This document shows positions 2,904-20,000 of a stretch of 20,000 nucleotides of DNA, piece by piece. The stretch comes from Folioceros fuciformis (Eukaryota). How positions within the stretch are numbered: position 1 is the stretch's first letter; the number at the start of each line of letters is the position of its first letter. Under the pieces are notes generated by a model that was not told the DNA's origin, did not search any database, and saw nothing but the letters and a program-made list of their open reading frames with translations. Both the position numbers and the translations under genes were made by a program. The DNA lies in assembly GCA_049999805.1 (NCBI GenBank), contig JBNGIO010006348.1:571402-591401 (forward strand), in the 5' to 3' direction.

Positions 2904-3600
2904 ATTCAGATAGAGCTTGATTTCTAACAAGTCCGCTATTGACGCCTGGGTACGGCAAGACAGACAGGCTATGCATATGCTAATCTTCGGATTAGACGAG
3001 GTTACCTTACACCATACTGATGGTGCCATAACCTCTGCTGAAGCTTGGAAGCAACTCATAGATATCTATCAATCTACTAATGTGATGACTCTTGTTACGG
3101 TACGTTTGGAGTTCTACTCATTACGTATGCAACCTAACGACATTGTTGCTCAGCACATAAGCAAGTTTAGGTATCTGCGCGCTCAACTTGCAGCACTTGG
3201 AATGGTAATCTCCGAATTTGATGCTGCGGTCCAGCTCTTAGCTAGCCTCCCGGCTAGTTATCAAACCTTTGTCTCATCCCAGAATCAGATGGTGAGAAAT
3301 GCTCACCAAGCTGTTAGGTCGGGCCAAGTCCCGAATATAATTGTGTCAGAGATTGCTGGAGCTCTCTTGCAAGAGGAGGCTGCCAGGTTCAATGTTGGCA
3401 CATCTTAATACGGGGGAGAAAGGGTCATGTTCGTGACCAACGATAGGTCATAATAGAATAAGAACAGGAGCTCTCAGGGATCTTCGGGTTCTTCCAAGTC
3501 TCCTAAGCGAGAGGGGACATGTCATTGGTGCCAAATGACTAGCCATTGGGAGAGAGAGTGTCGGAAGAAACAGGCTGGTGAGGCCCGCTAGGAGCTAAGG
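2904..3600 (+). pseudogene. gag: Second Ty1/copia gag lacking its N-terminus, with CCHC zinc knuckle
   Basis: ORF 2917-3408 (W..QDRQAMHML...SAEAWKQLIDIY...LRLEFYSLRM-like...HISKF...QLAALG..ISE....QLLASLPASY) is UBN2-like. The same frame continues through stops at 3406, 3451 and 3454 to CHWCQMTSHWEREC (C-x2-C-x4-H-x4-C) at 3520-3561. Confidence 0.88.
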
Positions 3601-6905: not shown

Positions 6906-7255
6906 AGAAACCCATGATGGCGTTGCGAGCTGAGTAGAGATACATAGACATACATATTTATGTCCATACGTGCCTGGCTTAAGCGAACGGACCATTGTCT
7001 ACTGTGTTCCACTCTTTATGTTCGCTTCAATGCCCGGCACGATGATGTGTAATGCTTGTGGGATTGACCTACCAGCCTGCAGGACGGTGCAACAACAGGA
7101 CGAAAGGCAGGATTCCTTACAACTATGCGGCTGTGCCGCTTCCTGTTACTTGTTCTCCGCTGTTGCTGCATTCGTGGGCTTATTCACGGCCATCCACAAT
7201 GCATCGGCTGATTTAAATAAATGATTTCCTCCAAAATTTGCTGTTGCTGTGTCCG

Positions 7256-9754
7256 ATGGGGTCCGTCTCGGTACAGGGTGGATTGCACCTGCATGGCGGG
7301 ACGGCTGGGGGAGAGAAATGCCTGTCGGTGAGGCTGGTTGTTCGGATGGCTTCCTTGCCTGGACCTCGCAAGGGCTTGGCGGCCAGAAATTCGTCTGGCT
7401 GGAAGGCGGTCACAGTGCGCCCTAGTTGGGTTGGATTCGGGGGGGAATGTAGGAAAGGGAGGGGACTGTGCACTGCGGCTGTTCTGCGGAATCCCCGAAG
7501 TCAGCAGGCAGGAGTGACGGTGGAGGCGAAGGAGGAATTGGAGGAGAGGCAGGAGGTGGTGAGGGATGGGGAGCAAACGATTATACCCAACATTTTGAGG
7601 ATTCTTAGGCCTGGCAAGTGGGATTCCGAGGTGGAGAGGACCTTGGCGGAGCTGGACCCCGACTTGAAGCCCCACCATGTGCGGCTGGTGATGCAGAAGG
7701 TGCAGGATGTGGATACTGCGTGGGGATTCTTTAACTGGGCGGGGACATTGCCGGACTACCAGCACACGGAGAGCACGTATGAGCCCATGTTGAGGCACCT
7801 TGGCTACTGCCTGAGGTTTGAGGAGATTTGCGAGCTGCTCAAGGTGATGGATCGGAAAGGGGAGGACGTGCAGAATTACATCTTCCGGATTGTGTTGAGA
7901 TTCGACAGGGAGAAGAATCCTAGCGGGGCGTATAAGGCCTTTTTGGCCCTGACGGGTTGTGGCCTGCAGCCCAGCTCGGTGGTGTGCAATTTTTTGCTCG
8001 GCACTCTGTCCAGACACGGGCTGCATCAGGGGTGCATCGAGGTTTATCACCACATGCTGGCGCGTGGCTTTGTTTTGGACCAGAGAGCGTACAACCGTCT
8101 CATCTACAGCTCCTACAAAGTGGGGTTTATGGATGAGGCGTACAAGCTGTACTTGGAGATGCGGAGGCTGGGTCTGGCTGTTTCCAAGTGGACTTATGTT
8201 GCTCTAATCAATGGTCTTGTGAAGGCAGGTCTTGTCTCTGAAGGCTATGCGATCTTCAAAGAGATGGAGTTGCCTCCGAATCTCCTTGTTTTCAATGGGT
8301 TGATACACGGCCTGGGGAAGGCGGGGCAGTTCAATGAGGCGCTGAGGCTGTTCGGCACCATGGAGGAGTCTGGTGTTTTCCCTGATGTTATTACGTATTC
8401 TACGCTTATGGATCAGCTCTGCAAATCTGGGAAGATCGATGAGGCCTGCGAGCTCTTTGCCGATATGAGGCGGAAAGGGATTCCTCCCAATCTTTTCACG
8501 TACAATGTTATGATTGGAGGGCTGAACAAGGCTGGTCGCCTCCTGGAAGCCACAGGACATTTTGAAGACATGTGTAAGGCAGGTATCTCTCCTGATGTCA
8601 TTACTTACAACTCCCTCATAGATGCAAATGGTAAAGCTGGTCAAATGTTTGAGGCCATAAAACTTTTTGTTGCGATGAGAAAATCTGGAGTCACTCCAGA
8701 CATGGTCACGTACAACAGTGTCATAAGTGGATTTGCAAAAGCGGGGCAATTGGAGCAGTCGTTTCAAACACTGGACATGATGCAGGAGAATGGAATTTAC
8801 CCCAACGCCGTTACGTACAACATTCTAATCTCAGCGCTTGCTAGGACTGGACAGGTAGACCAAGCGCAAGTTATATTGGATGCTATGGCAGAAGCAGGGG
8901 TTCAGCCAAATGTTATCACTTACACGGCCTTGATCGATGGCTTGGGTAAGGCTGGTCAGCCCTCGACTGCTCTGGAGGTTTTCAACAGTCTAAAGGACAA
9001 ACCGATAGCCCCCAATGCAGTATGTTACAGTACAATCATTGGTGTGCTTTGCAAAGCAGGGCAGTATGAGGAGGCTCACAGCATTTTTGAAGACATGAAC
9101 AAGAATGGAGTTGTGCCTGATGCGGTTGCGTTTGGGACACTCATTGTTGGTTTTGGTAAAGGCGGTCAAGTAGATAAGGCTTGTTCTCTGTTTGATGAAA
9201 TGAGGCGAAGAGGTCTTGTTACAGGAGTATTTTCGTATAATGTACTCATTGGTGTGCTCAGCCGCGATGGGCAGATAGAGGAGGCTTTGAGCATTTTCAG
9301 GGATTTGGGTCAGCAAGGCTTACAACCAGATGCTATCACCTACAATACCCTGATAGATGGGCTTGGTAAGGTGGGGCGGTTAGACGAAGCTTGCAAGCTT
9401 TTGAACGAGATGAAGGAACAGAATATGTCAGGGGATGTGGTTTCGTACAGTTCTTTGATCGACAGTCTCGGCAAATTTGGCCAGATTGATAAGGCATACC
9501 AGTTGTTCAAGGATATGCAAGCCGAAGGTCTCAGCCCAAATGTGATAACGTTCTCGTCGCTGATAGATGCCTTTGCCAGGTCCGGACGATTGGATGAAGC
9601 TTGTGTTCTGTTTGAAGAGATGAAAGAGAAGGGGCTTCTTCCGAACGAGATCACGTATGCCAACATCATCAACGGGTTTAACAAGGCTGGTCAAACAAGG
9701 AAAGCGAAGGAGTTCACAGAACGGGAAATGAACCAAGATGTTTTCTTCGTATGA
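7256..9754 (+). CDS. P-class pentatricopeptide repeat protein (~832 aa, ~19 repeats), intronless, probable organellar transit peptide
   Basis: Long ORF with consecutive 35-aa repeats such as PDVITYNSLIDANGKAGQMFEAIKLFVAMRKSGVT, and no E/DYW or SMR domain. The first ATG is 7256 (the ORF-track start at 7238 is TTG). The N-terminus is R/S/G/A-rich with few acidic residues. An alternative ATG lies at 7346. Confidence 0.95.
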   Translation: MGSVSVQGGLHLHGGTAGGEKCLSVRLVVRMASLPGPRKGLAARNSSGWKAVTVRPSWVGFGGECRKGRGLCTAAVLRNPRSQQAGVTVEAKEELEERQEVVRDGEQTIIPNILRILRPGKWDSEVERTLAELDPDLKPHHVRLVMQKVQDVDTAWGFFNWAGTLPDYQHTESTYEPMLRHLGYCLRFEEICELLKVMDRKGEDVQNYIFRIVLRFDREKNPSGAYKAFLALTGCGLQPSSVVCNFLLGTLSRHGLHQGCIEVYHHMLARGFVLDQRAYNRLIYSSYKVGFMDEAYKLYLEMRRLGLAVSKWTYVALINGLVKAGLVSEGYAIFKEMELPPNLLVFNGLIHGLGKAGQFNEALRLFGTMEESGVFPDVITYSTLMDQLCKSGKIDEACELFADMRRKGIPPNLFTYNVMIGGLNKAGRLLEATGHFEDMCKAGISPDVITYNSLIDANGKAGQMFEAIKLFVAMRKSGVTPDMVTYNSVISGFAKAGQLEQSFQTLDMMQENGIYPNAVTYNILISALARTGQVDQAQVILDAMAEAGVQPNVITYTALIDGLGKAGQPSTALEVFNSLKDKPIAPNAVCYSTIIGVLCKAGQYEEAHSIFEDMNKNGVVPDAVAFGTLIVGFGKGGQVDKACSLFDEMRRRGLVTGVFSYNVLIGVLSRDGQIEEALSIFRDLGQQGLQPDAITYNTLIDGLGKVGRLDEACKLLNEMKEQNMSGDVVSYSSLIDSLGKFGQIDKAYQLFKDMQAEGLSPNVITFSSLIDAFARSGRLDEACVLFEEMKEKGLLPNEITYANIINGFNKAGQTRKAKEFTEREMNQDVFFV

Positions 9755-10412
9755 GATACAGCTCCGCTAAACATGTGGATGCGGATGTGTGGGAGTGAGC
9801 TGTTGATGCTCCAGGGGGTCTCTGATGCTTACTGCTGCGCAAGGCTCTCGATCACTGAACTAGAGTTTAGTCAGGTTGTCTTGCTAACTATCCCTCGGGC
9901 GGGGATCTTGTTCAGGGAAACCTGCATGGTATGTATATTAATCATCTCATTGTAGGCACGTGCTCTCTCGAGCACCTGCGTGGAGTGGAACCTGGTGAAT
10001 CTTAAATTCACTTTGTATCTTCTGTCGGGCTTTGAATGTGATCTACTACGAAGTAGCAGCTCACGTAGGGAGATACTCGAGGATGAGGCACACAGAGGCG
10101 ATGACGAAGTTTTGTGATTTCGGGTGAAGTTGAGGATACTCTCGGCATGCATCTGCTCTTAGAGAGTGTCGGCGTTATGTCCGAACCAACTCAAAGGTAT
10201 GAAGTATCTGGTCAATGACGAAGTCTGAGCGTGAAGAGCGTCCGCTCACATATTGGGTATTTCGTAGTCTGAAAAAAGTGTAACAGCCGGTGAACAGGCA
10301 CTTCTGAGAGGCCATGTTAATCTGAATGGCTCGATTCCAGTGCAATCCACATGAACGCCAAACAGCGTCATTCCCAGGCCCTGACATCCCGAGGAAGTGT
10401 AACGTAGCTGTC

Positions 10413-13400
10413 TTAATTGTCATCACCGCAAGAGCATGCCCCTTCTTTGAAATGATGGACACGGTGAGCATCCCTCACGATGATCTCTCGTTTTTCAATG
10501 CTAGAGATAATTTTGGTGCCGCTGTGGCAGTGAAGGCACATTTTGAGGTTCTTGGTCACCAGCAGAGTGCTGCCTTCAGGAGTGTTGAGAAGGCCGAAGG
10601 CTACAGCAAGTTTTTCAGCATGTCCACAAAGAGCATCTTCCTTCTCCTTCTCAGACAGCGATTCCAGGAATAAGTCCATTTGTGGGCCATGGCCGCCCAG
10701 TGTAAGCTGCTGATTCAGGCTCCTTAGCTTCGCTCCTGTATCATCCCTGTTTGATCCCACGGTGAATTCGTGCACCTGGTTATTGACTTCTATCGAAGCT
10801 GAGGCAAACTTCTTCTCGGCACCAGCCCATTTTCTCAAATTTTCTATGTCATCTACATCCTGCCACCTCCCTACCTCAGAATACATGTCAGACATGAGAG
10901 CATAGCACGAGGCATGCTGAGGTTCCATTTGCACAAGCCGGTCAAAGCACCGCCTTCCGACCTCGATGGTATGATATGTTCTGCTGGCGCTGAGCAAACA
11001 TCTCCAGCCGACGCTGTTTTGTGCAAATGGCATTGTTTCCAGCATTAGCTCAGCCTCGTCCAATCGGCCGGACCTGCCGAGGAGATCAACCATGCAGGTG
11101 TAGTGATCAACGCCTGGAACGAGGCCATAAGTCTCTACCATCATTCTGAAGTACTTCTGCCCCTTCTCCACCAGTCCCACATGACTGCACGCTACGAGAA
11201 GACATAGAAAGGTTGCTGCATCCGGGACAACTCCCTGTAGTTGCATTTTGTCAAAGCACTGCATTGCCTTGTCACACCTGTTGTGCTGTCCAAAGCCATT
11301 GATCAGGGCAGTCCAAGTCACCACGTCTCTCTTTGACATTCCGTCGAATACTGATTGAGCCTCCTCCAGGCTCCCACACTTTGCATACATGTCGACTAGG
11401 CTGTTTGCCACAATGAGATCTACTAGCAGCCCCTTCTCCACAACTTGTGTGTGTACCCGCTTGCCCTCCTGGATCGCCCCCACACTGCCACATGCCTTCA
11501 GAATATTCACAAACGTAGTCACATTGGGCACCACCCCTTCCTGCTGCATTCTTGCAAACAGTGTGAAGGCTTCCTGGCCAACACAATGCTGGGCATATCC
11601 TGCAATCATGCTGTTCCAAGTGATAACATCTTTGGACGTCATTGTATCAAACACTCTGCGGGCATCCTCCAGGCTCCCGCACTTCACAAACATTTCCAGG
11701 AGGCTATTCTTTATTAGCAAGTCTTCAACAAGTCCCAAATCCAAGAGCTGGGCATAGATCCGTTTGCCATCCTGCAGAGCACCTGTGTTGCCACATGCCT
11801 TCAGAATGCTTAAAAACGTTACGCTGTCAGGTCTGTTCCCATCCTCCTGCATGCTCGTGAGGAGTTGAAGAGCCGCAAGAGTATGTCCGTGCTGGGCATA
11901 GCCTGAAATCATGGCACTCCAGGTTACAGTATCTCTTGCTGGTAATCTATCAAACACTTTCCTGGCATCTACAAGGCTACCGCACTTGACGTACATGTCC
12001 ATTAAGGCACTGCCCACAAAACCATCAGTCTCAAGTCCTATTTCCACTATCTGAGCATGGATCTGTCTGCCTTCGTTTATGGCTCGGGCACTGGTACAAG
12101 CCTTCAACACGCTCAAAAACGTAGCTTTGTCTGGAGTTATTCTGTCTTCGCGCATCCCTGCAAACACCTTAAGGGCTTCTTCACCGAGCCCCTGACTAGC
12201 ATATCCTGTAATGATGGTGTTCCACGTTACTACGTTCTTGGAGGACATTCTGTCAAACATCCTTCGCGCATCCTCCAAGCTCCCACATTTTGCATACATG
12301 TTCAGGAGAGCACTCCCAACAAAAACGTTTGACTCAAACCCGTTATCAGTTACATCAGCATGCACTAGTTGTCCGGATTTCAGATCTATGGCCATGGTAC
12401 AGGCTTTAAGGACAGTCACATACAGGTACGAATCCGCTCGAATACCAGATTTTCGCATGCGGTCATAGAGCTTTATAGCATGCTCAGCTTGCCCATGCTC
12501 AGCATGCGCTGAGATGATTGAAGTCCATACAAATGCAGTTGGGGCGGCCAACTTCATAAACACTTCATCTGCCTCATTTAGGCTTCCCAATGTAGCGTAC
12601 ATACGAACGAGGTGATTTGCCAGAAACGTGTTGGTCTCATATCCACGTCTCACAGTAAGATTATGAACTCGCCGTCCGACTGGCAAATTCTTCTGTACTA
12701 TGCACCCCTTTATAAGACAGTATATCATCTCCCTGGTGATGAAAGTTCCTTCCTCAGCCATCAGATCCACAGCTTCAAAAGCCTTAAACACCTCGCCATC
12801 TTCACAAAGTTTTCTCCATGGAATAGAGCGCAAAGAATTGCACACATCCACGCTGCGAGGCAAGCAGGTTAGGACAAGGAAGTGCGGAGGCGGCTAAGTC
12901 AGAGAACCCGAAATCCCCCTGAAGAGTATTACTGCAAAACTGTCGAGAGCTGTAGAAGAAACTGCACCTCACAGGTTCAACCCCCGATGAAACACCAGAA
13001 GGCAATGGAACTGAATTTGGTACTCTAGATGGCTTCTGCTGCCGAAGGCCCATGTCCTTTACCCATCCAACTTCTAACTTAAACCGCTGGCCTTCGTCCA
13101 CGAAGGTCAGGTCCGCGAGGGGTCTCTGCAGAATTTCTCAGGCTCGTTACTAAGATCTCTATGCCATATAACCCACGTTCCATCAGCGAAGAACGAATCT
13201 TACCTTGCTCGGGCTATTTCCCCTCCATCCTCGCAATGCATTTTGATCATCTGGAAGCCAAACCAAGTTCCGAGGTCAGAAAATCAACGTGAGCTGGGCA
13301 AGCCAAATGAAAGCATACAGACCACTCACCCAGGGTGCTTCCAAGCTTCTGGCCTTCGGAATGATCTCGGAGACTGGAGAAGCTTAGGTACCCTTCTTCC

Positions 13401-13477
13401 TTGGGCAGGAAAGAACGGGATTTGATTAGCATTTGACAGGTTCCGGCCACATGGCGGAAGGACCCAACTATCCTCAT
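10413..13477 (-). CDS. PLS-class PPR with E1-E2-DYW:KP-type domain (candidate U-to-C RNA editing factor), ~930 aa; exons 13477-13330, 13250-13204, 13125-12968, 12852-10413
   Basis: The main exon encodes L-S-(P-L-S)x4-P2-L2-S2 (17 repeats), E1, E2, then KKFASASIEV...GHAEKLA...KNLKMCLHCH...HHFKEGACSCGDDN. The ORF-track start is TTG inside a CTAAC...CAG acceptor. Three upstream GT-AG introns (79, 78, 115 nt) join in frame to MRIVGSFRHVAGTCQMLIKSRSF. The main exon is near certain; the 5' exons are moderately supported. Confidence 0.9.
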
Positions 13478-13768
13478 TTGAGCAGCTCATTTGCGTTGCA
13501 ATCAGTGTCTGATACAATGGGCTGGACAGCTCCGGCTCAAAGAACGTAGAAATGGAACTCGCGCATACTGTCTGGAGCAGACGCAGCATTAGTGAGGCCA
13601 CCAGTTGCGGTGATGGAACCCGGATGGCGAGTTGAGCATCTTGGTCGGAACAGAACTCGTGCACTCTTGACACATCTCATCTTCTTCCAGCATGATCATT
13701 TCAGAAAGGATTCGGCTTCTTCATTTGCAGCGTGTTAACACTGCAGATGGTTTGGAGCGTTGTGACGA
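13478..13768. promoter_or_regulatory. Putative bidirectional promoter and 5'UTR interval between the divergent DYW:KP genes
   Basis: There are 291 bp between the predicted ATGs at 13477 (-) and 13769 (+). The call comes from gene geometry only; no convincing TATA box was seen. Confidence 0.45.
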
Positions 13769-16700
13769 ATGAAGACCTGTTTGAAGCAACGGAAATTCAT
13801 CGCTTGTCTTCCTGCGGAGGCATGGTGCAGGCGGCAATCAAGTATGCAGAGTCGCGTGAAGCGTAGGCAAATCTGTGGGCATTGATCCTCCGGTTGTTGC
13901 TCCTGTCGTAAATTCTTAGGACCTCACCGTTCCAGCTGGCTTGCAGATGACCTGGACAAGAACAACGCAGTTGTGAACATATCATTTGCTGATCCATCGC
14001 AGTTTTGGAACAGGAGGTCGGGCAAGGTGAATTGGTTTAGGTCTTAGCTGTCTCCCAATCTCTTTTGGAAGGTGTTGCCTGGTCGTTAGGTGGCAGTTGA
14101 CCCTGGGTGATCACCACAGACAGAGCTCAAGCATCTAGACTTCGTGCACAGGACAACAAACGATGGGTTGTGGCTGGACTCATTGTCAGTTCCCACCAGC
14201 AAATCGAGGAATACATTATCTGCTGGTGCGGCATCTATCCGAGAAGATGGAGGCCATGCTGGTGCAGCATCTATCCGGGAAGATGGAGGTCTTGCTGGAG
14301 ACCATCCGCATGCCGTCAGGTATGTTCACAGTGTGCACTCCTTTAGGTGTGGAGAGACTGAACTTCTAGCCTTCTTGCCACCACCGTTCCTAAATTGCGC
14401 TGTTTGATTTTGAATTTCAAGGAGGGCATGTAGGGGTGCAAGGGCTGAAGGTCCTTCAGGAGCTTGGAGCAGTTTTTATAAGACGGGACAGGTTGATGAG
14501 GTATTCCAAGCTTTGGACCTCATGCACCGGGAGGGCCTTGTGGTTTCTGTAGACTTGTTGTACCAGCTCCTCAAATGGTGCATTGCACAGAAGGACCAGG
14601 CTGCTGGGAGACGTGTCCATGCCATCACTGTGAGGAATGGGCATGAGGCAAACGCATTTCTGGGGAACCACATTATTCGCATGTATGCATCTCACGGGGA
14701 GTTGCAGAAAGCGAGTGAAGTCTTCCGCAAACTTCAACCCCCCAATGTATTTGCTTGGAGTGCAATTATCTCGGCCCATGTGGATCATGGGAAAGCAACG
14801 CGGGCTATAGAATTGTATAAGCAACTGCGGCAAACACCGGTGCCGCCTGATGACTATACCCTCGTTGCTGTTCTCAAAGCCTGTGCAAGTTCGTCGGATT
14901 TGACATCAGGAAAGCTAGTTCATGGTGATGTGGTGAAGAATGGATCCGAGTCTAATGTGTTCGTTGGTAACACATTAGTCGACATGTATTGTAAGTGTGG
15001 GAGTCTGGAGGATGCTCGCACAGTGTTTGATAAGCTCCAGACCAGAGATGTGGTGACATGGAATGCAATGATTGCTGGGTATTCTCTTCATGGGAATTGG
15101 CAGGAGGTCTTCAAGTTGTTTCAAGAAATGCAAGAGCAAAGTTTCACGCCAGATGATGTCACATTCGTCACCATTTTGAAAGCGTGTGCTAGCACGGGAA
15201 ATGTTCAGTTCGGCAGGCAAGCTCACAAGGACCTTGTGACTTGGGGAGCGGTGGCACATATCTCTGTGAGAAGTGCACTGGTGGACATGTATGCCAAGTG
15301 CCAGAGCCTTGAGGAGGCAAGAACAGTCTTTGATAGCATGCGAACAAAAGACGGTCCGATATGGAGTGCCATGATTGCAGGATATGCTCAGCATGGCTCG
15401 GGGGAAGAAGCCCTCAGGCTTTATTCAAAAATGCGGCAGGATGGCATAACTGCTAAAAAGGCCACTGTTGTCCACATCCTCAAAGTGTGTGGGACTTTGG
15501 GATGTATATTGGATGGCAAGGCTGTGCACTCCGACATCATGGAAATGAGACTAGAAGCCGATGTGTTCGTCGGGAGTGCTTTGATTGACATGTATTGTGA
15601 ATGTGGAGCCGTGGTGGATGCTCAAGCAGTGTTTGATGGACTCCCAACCAGAGATATAGCAGTTTGGAATACCCTGATCTCAGGATATGCGCACCAAGGA
15701 CTTGGTGAAGAGGCTCTCAATGTTTATCACAGGATGTTGCAAGAGGGCGTGACACCAGACAAGCTTACCTTTGTAAGCGTTCTCAACGCGTGCGCTTGTG
15801 TAGGAGCCATACATGAGGGCAAGTGGATCCATACCCAGGTGTTAAAACGTGGACTTCAGGTGGATCTCTTCGTTGCGAGCACCTTGATGGACATGTATGC
15901 CAAGTGCGGGAACCTGAACGATGCTCACAAAGTGTTCGAAAGTTTGCCCAGAAGAAATGTGGTAGCATGGAATATTATGATCGCAGCATACGGTCAACAA
16001 GGGTTGGGAGCCACGGCCCTCAAACTGTATACAACCATGCAACATGATGGTATCGTGCCAGACAAGGTCACGTTTGTTACCAGTCTTCGAGCGTGTGGCA
16101 GCACTAAGGCTGTTCAAATGGGCAAGCAAATTCACTCACAAATTGTGGAAAGAGGGCTAGAATCAGACATGTTTGTTGTAAGTGCCCTTATGGACATGTA
16201 CGGAAAATGCGGGTGTCCTAGGGATGCCCGCAAGGTGTTTGACAGCTTGCGGGCACGTGACGTTGTGGCATGGAACATAATCTGTGCAGCATACGCGCAA
16301 AATGGGCTTGGTCGGGATGCCATTCAACTTTTCAAAAGCATGCAGCTGGATAACATTACACCAGATCAGACCACGTTTGTGACAGTTCTCAAGGCATGTT
16401 CAAGCACTGGGGCGATACAGGAAGGGCAGCAAATTCATTCCCAGATTGTCGGAAGAGGACTTGAAGCTGATACCGTTGTCGGGAATGCCCTCATAGATAT
16501 GTACACCACCTTTGGGAGACTGGAGGAGGCTCGACAGGTCTTTGAAACAGTGCCAGCCAAGGATATAGTGACATGGAGTGTTATGATCGCTGGATATGCT
16601 CAACATGGCCTTGGTCAGGAGGCCCTTGCACTCAACAGGAAGATGCAGCGGAGTGGTGTGATCCCAAACAACAGTGTCATCTTTGCAGGCCTTCTGAAAG

Positions 16701-17791
16701 CATGTTGCAGCGTCGGCGCCTTACAGGAGGGAAGGCGGACACATGCGCAGATTCTTGAGCAGGGGATGGAAGAAGATTTGTTTGTTGCAAGCACCCTGGT
16801 AGACATGTATGTGAGGTGTGGGAATCTAGAGGATGCACAGACAGTTTTCGACCGTTTGCCATGTAAAGACGTTGTGGCATGGACTGCTCTGATCAATGGA
16901 TATGGCCGGCACCACGACTGGAAGACGGCATTGGGATTATTTGACAGGATGCAAGAACAGGACTTGGAGCCCGACTCTGCAACTTTCACATCGCTGCTCT
17001 CAAGCTGCAGCCATCTGGGCTTGGTTGCGGAGGGTCAGAAGTATTTCAGGATGATGGAGGATTGTCACTCCATCACGCAGACTGTAGAACATTACACGGC
17101 GATGGTGGATCTGCTTGGCAGGGCAGGTCTGTTTGATGAAGCTCAAAGTCTGTTAGGATATACCCCCTTGTCAGGGCTCGGTGCGGGATGGAGGGCTTTG
17201 CTAAGCGCTTGCAAGAAGTTCTGCAACGTGGAACTCGGAAGGTTGTGTTTTAATCGGCTCGTGGAAATGGAACCTGAACAGGCTGTTGCGTACGTGTTAA
17301 TGTCAAGCATCTATGAGAATGCAGACAGGTGGGAGGACGTTGATGTCATTAAGAAGATGAGAAAGCGGGCAGGTGCGAACAAAATGCCAGCACTGGCGTC
17401 CATTCAGGTGGATGGTAAGGTGCATGAGTTCGTTGTGGGCGATAAAGGATTCCAGCAAGCAGATGATGTTTACAGCAAGTTGATGAGTTTGAATGAGCGG
17501 ATGAAGGAGGAAGGGCATGTGGCCCATACCGGCCCGGTACTGGAACCAGTGTCTGAAGCTGAAAGAGAGGAGGCTCTGTGCGGGCATGCTGAGAAGCTAG
17601 CTATAGCTTATGGTCTTCTGAATACACGAGAAGGCACACCCTTGTTAGTCGTTAAGAATCTGAGGATGTGCCAGCATTGTCACGACGGCAGCAAGTTCAT
17701 CTCAAGGACTGAAGGGCGTGAAATAGTAGTTAGAGATGCTCATTGTGTGCACCATTTCAAGGACGGCTTTTGTTCTTGCGGAGATCAATAA
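13769..17791 (+). CDS. PLS-class PPR with E1-E2-DYW:KP-type domain (candidate U-to-C RNA editing factor), ~1240-1247 aa; exons 13769-13862 (or -13841), 13947-14026, 14120-14319, 14422-17791
   Basis: The main exon encodes L-S-(P-L-S)x7-P2-L2-S2 (26 repeats), E1, E2, then KMPALASIQV...GHAEKLA...KNLRMCQHCH...HHFKDGFCSCGDQ. The frame is open upstream of the TTG ORF start back to the acceptor at 14421. Three GT-AG introns join in frame to the basic leader MKTCLKQRKFIACLPAEAWCRRQSS. The main exon is near certain; the first exon is the least certain. Confidence 0.9.
14221..14298 (+). repeat. In-frame 36-bp tandem duplication in predicted exon 3 (AGAASIREDGGH / AGAASIREDGGL)
   Basis: Units at 14221-14256 and 14257-14292, plus a partial TGCTGG. 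Confidence 0.92.
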
Positions 17792-17861
17792 TCTTCTACC
17801 TTCCTGTGCTTGTGAGAGTAGTCCGGGATTGACTGTGTACCTGTGTTTCATGCCACCAACC

Positions 17862-20000
17862 TCAAGGAAACGGGCCTCGCAGCAAGCCATACGCAGACAC
17901 GTAGTGCTCCTTCTCCGCCTTCTCTTTGAGGAGGCGACGTGAAGGCTCTGCTGAGCCTTCCCCCGTCCGACCGCTGTGATCACTGTCGTCCGCAATGCGC
18001 ATGGGCGCTTGAAGGCGTGATTCCAGATTGCGAACAACTCCCTCCGGATTTCTGCTGAACGCCTGCCACACTACAAAGTTGGTGCGAAAATGGATGAAAA
18101 GACTTTGATTCCTTAGCTTCCAGAGCGAGGACTCACCGCGATATTTGCCGCATCCGACACTACTTTAAGGCGAGTATAGTCCATCAAATAGTTCTTCTTG
18201 CTGCGCGCTTCGTTCGCCATGCTGCTACTGGCCTCCATACTCTTGATCTTTATGTTGGCGGCTCCTAGTTCCGCTAATGCTGTCTGATGATCATCCCATC
18301 AAGACGGAAACATCTTCTTGCTGTGCTCAGGCGAGTCATGCCAAACACCTGACATACCATCAAATTACCTGCAGGCTGCTCTCCGCTATTTGCAGGCTAC
18401 GCACTTTTTGAGCGATGTCCATACCAAGTGCTTTGACAGTGACACTGTGACTGTTTCTCTCGGCTTGCAAGTTGTTCCTTTCTAGACATTCACCAGCAAT
18501 GTTATGTCTAAGCTCCATCCCACTTTGGAATACGTCAATACAAAACTGCTGTCAGTCAGGTGGGTTTGGGACCTCCGTACCAACCTGCACACACCCTTTT
18601 GTATGCTTCATGGCCCTGAGATAGAGCGTCTTCCAGCTTCCCAATTTGACGTTGTGAACGAGCTAGGTCTTCTTTCGTCCTTGCAGCGTCGAAAGCGTTG
18701 GCTTTCAATCTCTCCGCATCAGCCTCCAGTGCTCTTAATTTCTGCTGTAGTTTCGCCACCTCTTCTGAAGCCGCTTGCAGCTCTGCCGTCCTGCCAACTT
18801 ATTTGAAAACACCACAAGTTCAGCAAGTAGCATTTCAATTCATGCTGTAGCTGTGTCCAATCACGGAAACCAGCCATTCAAGGGTTTTCTGGTAATCACT
18901 CAGTTCCTCTGACGGCCGCTTGTTTGAATCCGTAGCGTCGTTAAGTTCCTTCAACAGTTGATTATACGACTACAGCACAATGACCTGCCCGTATCAGTCA
19001 CCTACCCGTTCAAAGAATCAAATGCGCAAGGCAGTTGTACGCACGCACCTGTCCGCCTTGACGACATACACTCACCTGTGTACACAGTTCCAAAAAGTTG
19101 AATAATGAACCTGAGCGTTTGCAGCCTCGTCTTCGGCATGCTTCGTTCTCAATCTAGCAAGCTCAGCCTCGGCTTCTTGGTCCTTTTTTATCAACTCCCC
19201 TTTGCAATTTCTATTTTCCTTCTCTAAAGCAGCAACACTAGCTTCCAGTGCTGACACTTTGCTGTTAGAAGCTTCTAACTCCTTCTGTAATTGTTCAGCT
19301 TTTTGGCGAAGGGCTTCAGCATCTTTGTGAAGTTGCTCAGCGGCTAGTTTCTGTCTCGCCGCGATTTCTTCTGAATCCTGTCGTGCTTTGTTCAGTTCAT
19401 CCTGCAGTTTTTGGATCGTAGCAGCATAGCTATCTGCTTTTTCTGATGCCTGCCTCAGAGCTTCCTTCATCTTTGCCAGATCTTCCTGGAGACGGGACCT
19501 TTCCTCAGCAGCAGAGCTGGCAGCCTTCTCCATTTGTTCCTTAAACTTAGCAAGCTCTTCCTGGAGGCGGGATCGTTCCTCGGCAGCAGTGCTAACAGAC
19601 TTCTGCAGCTGTTCAGCTAAATTCTTAAGCTTCTCCTCGAGGGCCGCGTTCTGTTCCTGAGCTTTGACCAATTCACCAGTGAACCTCCTCACTTCAGACT
19701 CGTCTTTGCTCCTTTGTTCTCCCATGCTCTCCTGGTTCTTCAATGCTTGTGCCAACTGGGACTTTCCATCTGCAACATCCGACAGCAGCTTATCTCTCTC
19801 GGTCACGAGCGCCTGCAGCTTGGCTTCCAATGAAGCAATTTGGCCCTTCGATTTGTTTAATTCATCAGACTCTTTGCCCCTTTGCTCCGCCAAGTTCTTC
19901 AATGCCTGTGTCAACTGGCTCTTCAGAGCCGCAATCTCCGCCTGCAGCTGGTTCCTCTCTGCCACAAGCGCCTGCGTCGCTGCTTCAGCTTCAGCCAACT
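17862..20000 (-). CDS. 3' part of a long coiled-coil protein gene, family not recognised; exons >20000-19111, 18969-~18871, ~18790-18585, 18481-18369, 18283-18137, 18062-17862
   Basis: E/K/Q/A/L-rich heptad sequence continues across GT-AG introns (ANAQ|SYNQLLKEL; YKRVCA|ERNNLQAE; ESSLQ|TALAEL; ANIA|AFSRNP...RGPFP*). The phase of the junction between ~18871 and ~18790 could not be resolved. The 5' end is outside the window. Confidence 0.8.
19461..19970 (-). repeat. Intragenic repeats in the coiled-coil exon (75-nt and 159-nt periods)
   Basis: S(T/S)AAEERSRLQE(E/D)LAKxKE occurs twice (TCTTCCTGGAG at 19481 and 19556). LVxER...KSQLxQALKN occurs twice (TTCTTCAATGC at 19736 and 19895). Confidence 0.85.

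Follow-up and report, generated by a model that had tools for sequence, protein, structure and literature searches.

Two divergent PPR-DYW:KP genes, separated by 291 bp between ATGs, resemble ordinary representatives of a large family more than a new two-enzyme system

Our analysis of a 20,000-nt stretch of Folioceros fuciformis DNA (the window) showed two PLS-class PPR genes lying head to head, one on the minus strand at 10413-13477 and one on the plus strand at 13769-17791, both intact and with 291 bp between ATG 13477 (minus) and ATG 13769 (plus). The pair appear to be ordinary representatives of a known and very large family, placed side by side in a way that is common for genes. They do not look like a new two-enzyme system, and nothing suggests a two-enzyme module. 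Most probably, these are two independent editing factors of the known PLS-E1-E2-DYW:KP class that adjoin in a PPR-rich genome without forming a functional unit. A first-pass annotation of this DNA had described paralogous DYW:KP-type genes diverging from a 291-bp gap, and on this point the open reading frames, the Pfam matches and the ATG positions all agree with it.

Both proteins match Pfam PPR families, E_motif and PF14432 DYW_deaminase (E = 2.4e-33 for the minus gene and 4.7e-33 for the plus gene for the last of these), and in both the PLS-class architecture consists of P1-L1-S1 triplets with a period of 101 aa, followed by P2-L2-S2 and then by E1 and E2. This order of parts, completed by a deaminase-like domain, is that of the PPR-DYW:KP proteins of hornworts, lycophytes and ferns, which are candidate natural U-to-C editing factors and the basis of the designer proteins KP1-KP6. 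The C-terminal domains (10416-10814 on the minus strand, 133 aa; 17381-17788 on the plus strand, 136 aa by segmentation) contain HxE(x)nCxxC, with HAE at 65 and 69 and CxxCH at 93 and 97 of the minus and plus domain, respectively, and in both the active-site triplet is HAE, not HSE, within HAEK. The lysine of KNL is found at 88 of the minus domain and the homologous lysine at 92 of the plus domain, and neither protein ends in DYW, the last residues being ..CSCGDDN (minus) and ..CSCGDQ (plus). An alanine in the active-site triplet has been described for the KP type (PMC9478123) and Lys88 is essential to the U-to-C activity of designer proteins (PMC11845758); the descriptions in these two papers match the KP features of both proteins, namely HAE for HSE, CxxCH, Lys88 and the absence of a DYW end, together with the 133-aa domain of the minus gene. 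In a quick tree, 51 rows not ending in DYW (both window proteins included) were split with support 100 from eight DYW-ending, PG-type rows, and a more careful tree confirmed the placement of both window rows.

At the same time, the pair differ from described KP proteins in several details. The nearest relatives end in GDRH or GGRP, which correspond to the two hornwort KP variants DRH and GRP (PMC9478123), whereas the window proteins end in DDN and GDQ. At the position of the PG box, the minus protein reads KKFASA (no P) and the plus protein KMPALA (P kept, the preceding K replaced), so that PG is found in neither and, unlike in canonical KP, there is no K-P pair; the minus relatives P0021 and P0006 also have no P at this box (KKLAKA). 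KP domains typically have 132-133 aa and lack the xHP residues, as fits the 133 aa of the minus domain. The 136 aa of the plus domain, which include three extra residues that are not HP, equal the length of one KP type on record (PMC9478123), and among the designer KP proteins KP4 alone has this length, although its HP residues are absent in the plus protein. What the pair offer as they stand is modest: two natural DYW:KP genes that are well delimited and have 5' exons joined by splicing. With their unusual PG-box replacements, ends other than DRH or GRP and domains of 133 versus 136 aa, they could be used as natural material for testing which residues determine the direction of U-to-C editing.

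To define the genes we used open reading frames together with contigs from sequencing runs (X1, X2 and X3), whose kind was presumed, by a guess, to be RNA. X1 comes from the same organism: over both genes, its contigs match the window with 0 other letters. Across the window, X1 cover is absent in seven of 30 bins, which we do not count as evidence. Neither large open reading frame has a start codon of its own. The ATGs of the first-pass annotation are not contiguous with the main frames, because stop codons intervene, and they are joined to them only via short 5' introns. For the minus gene, the stop-to-stop frame at 10413-12893 (826 aa) is brought into frame with ATG 13477 by three canonical GT-AG introns of 79, 78 and 115 nt, giving a model of 930 aa with no internal stops and with an in-frame stop upstream of the ATG at 13489. 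Reading from the 5' end on the minus strand, the coding part of exon 1 (13330-13477) is open from the ATG and its transcript extends upstream into the interval between the genes; it is followed by intron 1 (13251-13329, 79 nt, GTGAGT..CAG), exon 2 (13204-13250, 47 nt, placed from lengths), intron 2 (13126-13203, 78 nt, GTAAGA..CAG), exon 3 (12968-13125, 158 nt, frame open), intron 3 (12853-12967, 115 nt, GT..AG, phase 2, acceptor AG at 12854-12853) and the last and largest coding exon (10413-12852, stop codon at 10413-10415).

These three introns are well supported by contigs from the runs of four studies, in which pieces end at the exon boundaries 12852, 13125 and 13330. Pieces of X1 record 5, X2 record 13 and X3 record 18 all end at 12851/12852, the boundary of the minus last exon; X3 record 18 joins 12851 to 12967 and continues as a piece 12967-13125, whose end at 13125 matches the 3' boundary of intron 2, and a piece of X2 record 13 starts exactly at 13330. 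Exons 2 and 3 together measure 205 nt. In X2 record 13 the pieces are separated by 206 unplaced letters, a matching length, and the model likewise places 205 letters of X1 record 5 between 12852 and 13330. An earlier candidate start codon for this gene, at 13053, was dropped once exons further upstream were found.

The plus gene is somewhat less settled at its 5' end. Its stop-to-stop frame at 14414-17791 (1125 aa) can be joined to ATG 13769 in a model that preserves the frame, with exons 13769-13862, 14124-14319 and 14422-17791 and a product of 1219 aa. Enumeration of introns gave 494 GT-AG combinations that keep the frame open from this ATG, and therefore an open frame alone cannot pick the model; the two 5' introns are partly provisional and the middle exon is provisional. 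The coding part of exon 1 (13769-13862, plus strand) is given provisionally with a donor GTAGGC at 13863, close to the end of an X2 piece at 13864. Exon 2 (14124-14319) is supported at its 3' end, with a donor GTATGT at 14320, and provisional at its 5' end; it has 196 nt in the model, whereas X2 record 13 has 222 letters here. With an acceptor at 14096 the exon would measure 223 nt, near those 222 letters, but would include an in-frame TGA at 14108-14110, and the 196-nt form was provisionally preferred; a start codon at 14163 was dropped when upstream exons were found and the donor was placed at 14320. Exon 2 also contains a tandem repeat at 14221-14298 (36-nt unit, 2.2 copies, 90% matches, plus strand). 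The last intron (14320-14421, 102 nt, GT..AG, phase 2) has an acceptor at 14421 backed by two contigs, X1 record 6 running from 14420 and X2 record 13 from 14422, and the last and largest coding exon (14422-17791, stop codon at 17789-17791) is matched by X1 records 6 and 7 with 0 other letters.

We then considered the interval between the two ATGs (13478-13768, 291 bp), for which the first-pass annotation had proposed a bidirectional promoter, kept or gained. In the contigs this interval is largely transcribed leader, and a shared promoter is a hypothetical reading of it. X2 record 13, a contig of 5017 nt from a related organism, carries 12272-12851, 13330-13864 and 14422-17871 collinearly, and its middle piece covers 13330-13864 without a break and thus spans the whole interval. 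Because this contig bridges both genes, the interval is better seen as transcribed 5' leader sequence, presumably including both core promoters, than as a silent shared promoter. Spliced contigs of the minus gene also appear to enter the interval, by about 166 nt in the case of X1 record 5, which judging from its length should reach about 13643, upstream of the minus ATG (in X1 records 5 and 6 the part further upstream is placed from lengths, and positions are those among the pieces listed). The 5' leaders of the two genes probably overlap within the interval, as the extent of the contigs suggests.

The two PLS arrays differ in size and in predicted readout. On the minus strand, the array with E1 and E2 occupies 10815-12839 and was segmented, with a 101-aa period, into six triplets (18 motifs); on the plus strand it occupies 14444-17380 and has nine triplets (27 motifs). 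Leaving out a degenerate first motif gives 17 and 26, so the repeat numbers of the first-pass annotation, and the difference of three triplets between them, hold. It had also noted unlike code residues, which is borne out: with the arrays aligned in the C-terminal register, the PPR code predicts the same base at four of ten aligned P/S positions and different bases at five, while for one position the code makes no prediction in the plus protein. It is otherwise with the atypical first repeats, which the annotation saw as shared by the pair. They are indeed common to both genes, the motif Y.L.K.CI.QK....GRRVH..TVR.G.E.N.FL.NH..RMYA fitting both proteins exactly and the first motif W...G.V....A.DLM..EG being present in both (with dot counts slightly off as originally written), but they are found across the KP family, and other members match better: the first triplet of the minus protein is matched at 59% by P0039 and at 53% by P0021, compared with 48% by the plus protein, and the first triplet of the plus protein is matched at 54% by P0021, compared with 48% by the minus protein.

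Taken together, these features point to two nuclear genes of the PLS-E1-E2-DYW:KP class, separate from each other, both intact and transcribed, each of which would act on its own. The N-terminal extensions, encoded by the small 5' exons, are basic with few acidic residues and may serve as organelle-targeting peptides. The PPR arrays, six triplets in the minus protein and nine in the plus protein, would according to the PPR code read different RNA upstream of different target uridines. At the C-terminus is the KP-type deaminase-like domain, which keeps the zinc and catalytic residues HAE..CxxCH and the active-site lysine in both. Designer proteins built from the KP class perform site-specific U-to-C editing, and a U-to-C activity of both proteins, like their organelle targeting and separate targets, is predicted here from sequence features. 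PPR editing factors act as site-specific single proteins, and we know of no requirement for paired PPR editing factors.

The relationship between the two genes bears most directly on how they came to adjoin. As distant paralogues, their proteins share 49% identity across 785 aligned residues, with about 56% in the C-terminal 307; in the C-terminal region, 26 of 248 other proteins are closer to the minus gene than the plus gene is. In the tree the minus gene groups with P0021/P0006 (support 99/94) and the plus gene with P0132 (100/98), and exclusive sisterhood of the pair was rejected (AU p = 0.0045, C-terminal 310 residues), in a comparison made with database proteins, the other paralogues of this genome being absent from the tree. 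The first-pass annotation had pointed to a placement in distant KP subclades as evidence against its proposal; instead, both genes fall within one moderately supported subclade of 11 of the 59 rows (91/88). Moreover, both have a phase-2 intron 12-15 codons ahead of the first conserved W, and this, together with the shared subclade, is easier to reconcile with a common origin at this locus than with adjacency by pure chance. On the other hand, the N-terminal extensions showed no homology between the genes (best E 0.29), and no inverted DNA repeat was found outside the repeat-coding parts, the 5' extensions, flanks and interval being without homology. With unrelated N-terminal extensions and no inverted repeat, the old inverted duplication originally proposed is therefore no more than a possible origin, for copies that are not each other's closest relatives.

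An explanation in which such an old local inverted duplication was retained by a shared bidirectional promoter, making the pair a co-regulated two-enzyme editing module, is in our view unlikely. It would account for two genes that diverge from ATGs only 291 bp apart, the common 11-row subclade, a last 5' intron that is similarly placed and in the same phase in both, and the presence of one contig in a related organism (X2 record 13) that holds both genes in the same head-to-head arrangement. The pair are, however, not sisters, each having closer relatives; their first repeats are a family-wide trait, their N-terminal extensions are without detectable homology, and transcription through the interval does not fit a clean shared promoter. 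The single-protein action of PPR editing factors also argues against it. In Arabidopsis, the average co-expression of bidirectional gene pairs exceeds that of random pairs, but significant co-expression was seen in only 170 of 1392 of them (PMC2648788). Were such a module real, it would give the first indication of functional units among nuclear editing factors, and its compact natural promoter could be used to express two KP editors.

Pure chance adjacency, in which dispersed duplication or rearrangement would have brought each gene here independently, in a genome with a large proportion of PPR genes, seems quite unlikely too, despite several points that favor it: the window has three PPR genes within 11 kb, the third being an unrelated P-class gene at 7238-9754; a copia gag fragment is nearby; dispersed duplication dominates hornwort PPR expansion (PMC13386178); and the AU test and the lack of homology in flanks and 5' exons are as this explanation would have it. 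Against it stand the 5' introns kept in both genes, which recent retrocopies would not have, the similar phase and position of the last introns, and the shared 11-row subclade among the 51 rows not ending in DYW. A conserved divergent unit is very unlikely. In it, first exons would overlap in antisense so that transcription of one gene modulates the other, or a shared element would drive both, coupling the supply of two U-to-C factors with related organellar targets. The kept arrangement in the related organism could reflect constraint, but the two organisms differ by only about 5-8% in the coding pieces compared, and it therefore says little.

Known gene numbers and arrangements form a background for reading the pair as independent editing factors. 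Hornwort genomes hold 1,583-2,308 PPR genes each (PMC13386178), and head-to-head pairs account for 13.3% of Arabidopsis genes (PMC2648788). A limited literature search found no head-to-head pairs of KP genes. Bidirectional pairs have been defined by a location on opposite strands and a distance of at most 1000 bp between TSSs (PMC2648788); the pair described here lies on opposite strands with starts, in this case ATGs and not TSSs, 291 bp apart and thus well under that distance, the contigs suggesting that leaders enter the interval. Its 5' ends possibly overlap, as they do in 67 of 2471 Arabidopsis bidirectional pairs in the same study. Unlike in most bidirectional pairs, both partners here are paralogues of one family. 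As adjoining paralogues with more than 40% similarity across more than 105 aa they resemble the 'tandem' PPR duplicates of PMC13386178, from which they differ in their inverted orientation and in not being mutual closest relatives among the sequences compared.

The window contains three large PPR reading frames: a P-class PPR gene on the plus strand (7238-9754; an 838-aa frame with 15 PPR_2 stretches) and two genes of the DYW:KP type, a candidate U-to-C editing class, whose stop-to-stop frames cover 826 aa on the minus strand (10413-12893) and 1125 aa on the plus strand (14414-17791). Both KP frames carry PPR repeats, an E motif and a match to the DYW deaminase family (Pfam; E 2.4e-33 for the minus gene, 4.7e-33 for the plus gene). 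Aligned in the C-terminal register, the two proteins are 49% identical over 785 residues; the N-terminal register gives 44% (BLASTP). The divergent KP pair described in the first-pass annotation is confirmed in its essentials. In neither large KP frame does an ATG precede the first repeat, and stop codons separate the start codons proposed earlier (13477, minus; 13769, plus) from the respective frames.

Gene models were built by aligning contigs from four public runs of four studies to the window. Contigs of run X1 differ from the window by 0 letters, indicating the same organism, while those of X2, X3 and X7 are roughly 5-8% different in coding pieces and so come from related organisms. That these runs are RNA is a guess, which applies to all contig-based models here; we took contigs that skip introns to be spliced RNA, since their skips fall at GT-AG sites. 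On the minus gene, X1 record 5 departs from the genome at 12852. X3 record 18, whose match stops at 13125, has 12851 and 12967 side by side, and X2 record 13 carries 206 letters between a piece ending at 12851 and the next one, which starts at 13330. The piece ends fall exactly on the borders of three canonical GT-AG introns (12853-12967, 13126-13203 and 13251-13329, minus), and the two small exons between the introns total 205 nt. Joining the four exons gives a 930-aa open frame from the ATG at 13477, with an in-frame stop directly upstream at 13489, and the model is well supported. The small exons and the upstream leader hold several ATGs that are out of frame (13051-13066, 13248-13250); one, at 13250, opens exon 2 and reaches a stop after the splice. 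None affects a model starting at 13477. On the plus gene, X1 record 6 and X2 record 13 both back an acceptor at 14421, whose intron begins with the donor GTATGT at 14320. Upstream of that donor, the model that preserves the ORF (13769-13862, 14124-14319 and 14422-17791, plus; 1219 aa) is provisional: 494 intron combinations keep the frame open, and the middle exon is 196 nt in the model versus 222 letters in X2. A 36-nt tandem repeat in the provisional second exon (14221-14298; 2.2 copies, 90% matches) encodes 12 residues that occur twice in the N-terminal extension.

The distance between the two ATGs is 291 bp (13478-13768), as claimed, and holds with the spliced models. Judging by its length, X1 record 5 (1100 nt) should reach about 13643, 166 nt past the ATG at 13477 and inside this interval. 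From a related organism, X2 record 13 (5017 nt) covers 13330-13864 without interruption, with the spliced exons of the minus gene on one side and the body of the plus gene on the other. Since one RNA cannot splice on both strands, this contig must merge two overlapping or abutting transcripts, which makes the interval a transcribed leader, and the 5' ends of the two genes probably overlap. A shared bidirectional promoter in the interval is unsupported. The same contig places the head-to-head linkage in the related organism too. Over the 535 nt of its 13330-13864 piece it has 63 other letters and 11 gaps relative to the window; divergence here exceeds that of the coding pieces, and the interval thus shows no unusual conservation. 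The predicted N-termini of both proteins are basic with few acidic residues, which would fit organelle presequences.

In both proteins a P motif starts every 101 residues, and the triplets are followed by E1, E2 and the deaminase-like domain. The arrays differ, as had been noted, by three P-L-S triplets, with 6 (18 motifs) in the minus protein and 9 (27 motifs) in the plus protein. Paired triplet by triplet, identity between the two proteins is 46% for the first triplets, 54% for the second, 54% for the last and 56% for the C-terminal tails; the central triplets of one match those of the other at 39-60%, so identities do not fix where the difference lies, with the C-terminal register fitting slightly better than the N-terminal one. 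Predicted from the fifth and the last residue of each P and S motif, the RNA strings of the two proteins differ, in line with the differing code residues reported: of 10 positions aligned in the C-terminal register, 4 share a predicted base, 5 differ and 1 has no prediction in the plus protein.

The relevant passages of PMC9478123 and PMC11845758 define DYW:KP by an altered PG box, HAE instead of HSE and a non-DYW end, give a usual domain length of 132-133 residues without xHP, and describe the conserved Lys88 as essential to U-to-C activity in designer proteins. The minus domain (10416-10814) has 133 residues, HAE at 65, Lys at 88, CxxCH at 93 and the end DDN; the plus domain has 136 by our segmentation, with HAE at 69, the homologous Lys at 92, CxxCH at 97 and the end GDQ. 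Each PG-box equivalent (KKFASA, minus; KMPALA, plus) lacks one of the two name-giving residues. The proline is lost both in the minus gene and in its nearest database relatives, P0021 and P0006 (KKLAKA), with HAE, CxxCH and Lys88 kept. On these residues the three may form a minor sub-variant of KP, suited to an activity comparison against canonical KP domains.

The best database matches are assembly proteins with about 50% identity over the full length, rising over the C-terminal ~310 residues to as much as 65% (minus gene) and 60% (plus gene); many end in GDRH or GGRP, which PMC9478123 gives as the two variants of KP in hornworts, pointing to a hornwort origin for the window. Among 250 proteins with a long C-terminal match (window pair included), 26 exceed the plus gene in similarity to the minus gene. 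A careful tree of 59 rows (all 51 non-DYW-ending rows of at least 47% identity, with the 8 DYW-ending rows of highest similarity serving as outgroup, leaving out the other 191) groups the minus gene with P0021 and P0006 (support 99/94) and the plus gene with another relative, P0132 (100/98); the smallest clade containing both has 11 rows (91/88), and an exclusive pair is rejected (AU test, log-likelihood difference 51, p = 0.0045). The first-triplet motif, proposed as an atypical signature of the pair, recurs at 44-59% identity in many KP proteins, GRP and DRH types among them, and in some the match beats that of the partner gene; a signature specific to the pair is unsupported. By sequence comparison, then, the two are old paralogues that belong to a single KP subgroup, and each has closer relatives than the other.

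Of the old inverted duplication proposed for the pair, paralogy and divergent arrangement stand, but a local event is no more than a possibility. Hints of an ancient one are the shared subclade and the phase-2 intron that each gene has 12-15 codons ahead of its first conserved W. Between the N-terminal extensions no similarity was seen (best E 0.29), and the inverted DNA repeats between the genes (4 pairs, 70-80%) are confined to repeat-coding parts. Independent arrival as neighbours is also plausible in a lineage whose genomes hold 1,583-2,308 PPR genes each, expanded mostly via dispersed duplication (PMC13386178); the window itself has three within 11 kb. Plants commonly have head-to-head pairs whose starts are close: the Arabidopsis figures in PMC2648788 are 2471 pairs (13.3% of genes), 67 of them with overlapping 5' ends, and significant co-expression in only 170 of 1392 tested. 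We regard these old paralogues as newly found members of a known family in an ordinary gene arrangement. Nothing in this analysis suggests cooperation between the proteins, which leaves the proposed two-enzyme module unsupported; to our knowledge, PPR editing factors work singly, each on its own sites.

The minus gene also lies tail to tail with the P-class gene across 9755-10412, and X1 record 2 (3672 nt) spans 6973-10644 unbroken, so transcribed sequence bridges the 3' ends of both. About 4 kb from the PPR genes, a 164-aa frame (2914-3408, plus) matching a copia-type LTR retrotransposon gag polypeptide (PF14223, E 4.4e-27) looks like a transposon remnant. A frame running off the window end (19072-19998, minus) has weak coiled-coil-type Pfam matches, all below cut-offs, and X1 record 8 covers 19172-19878 within it.
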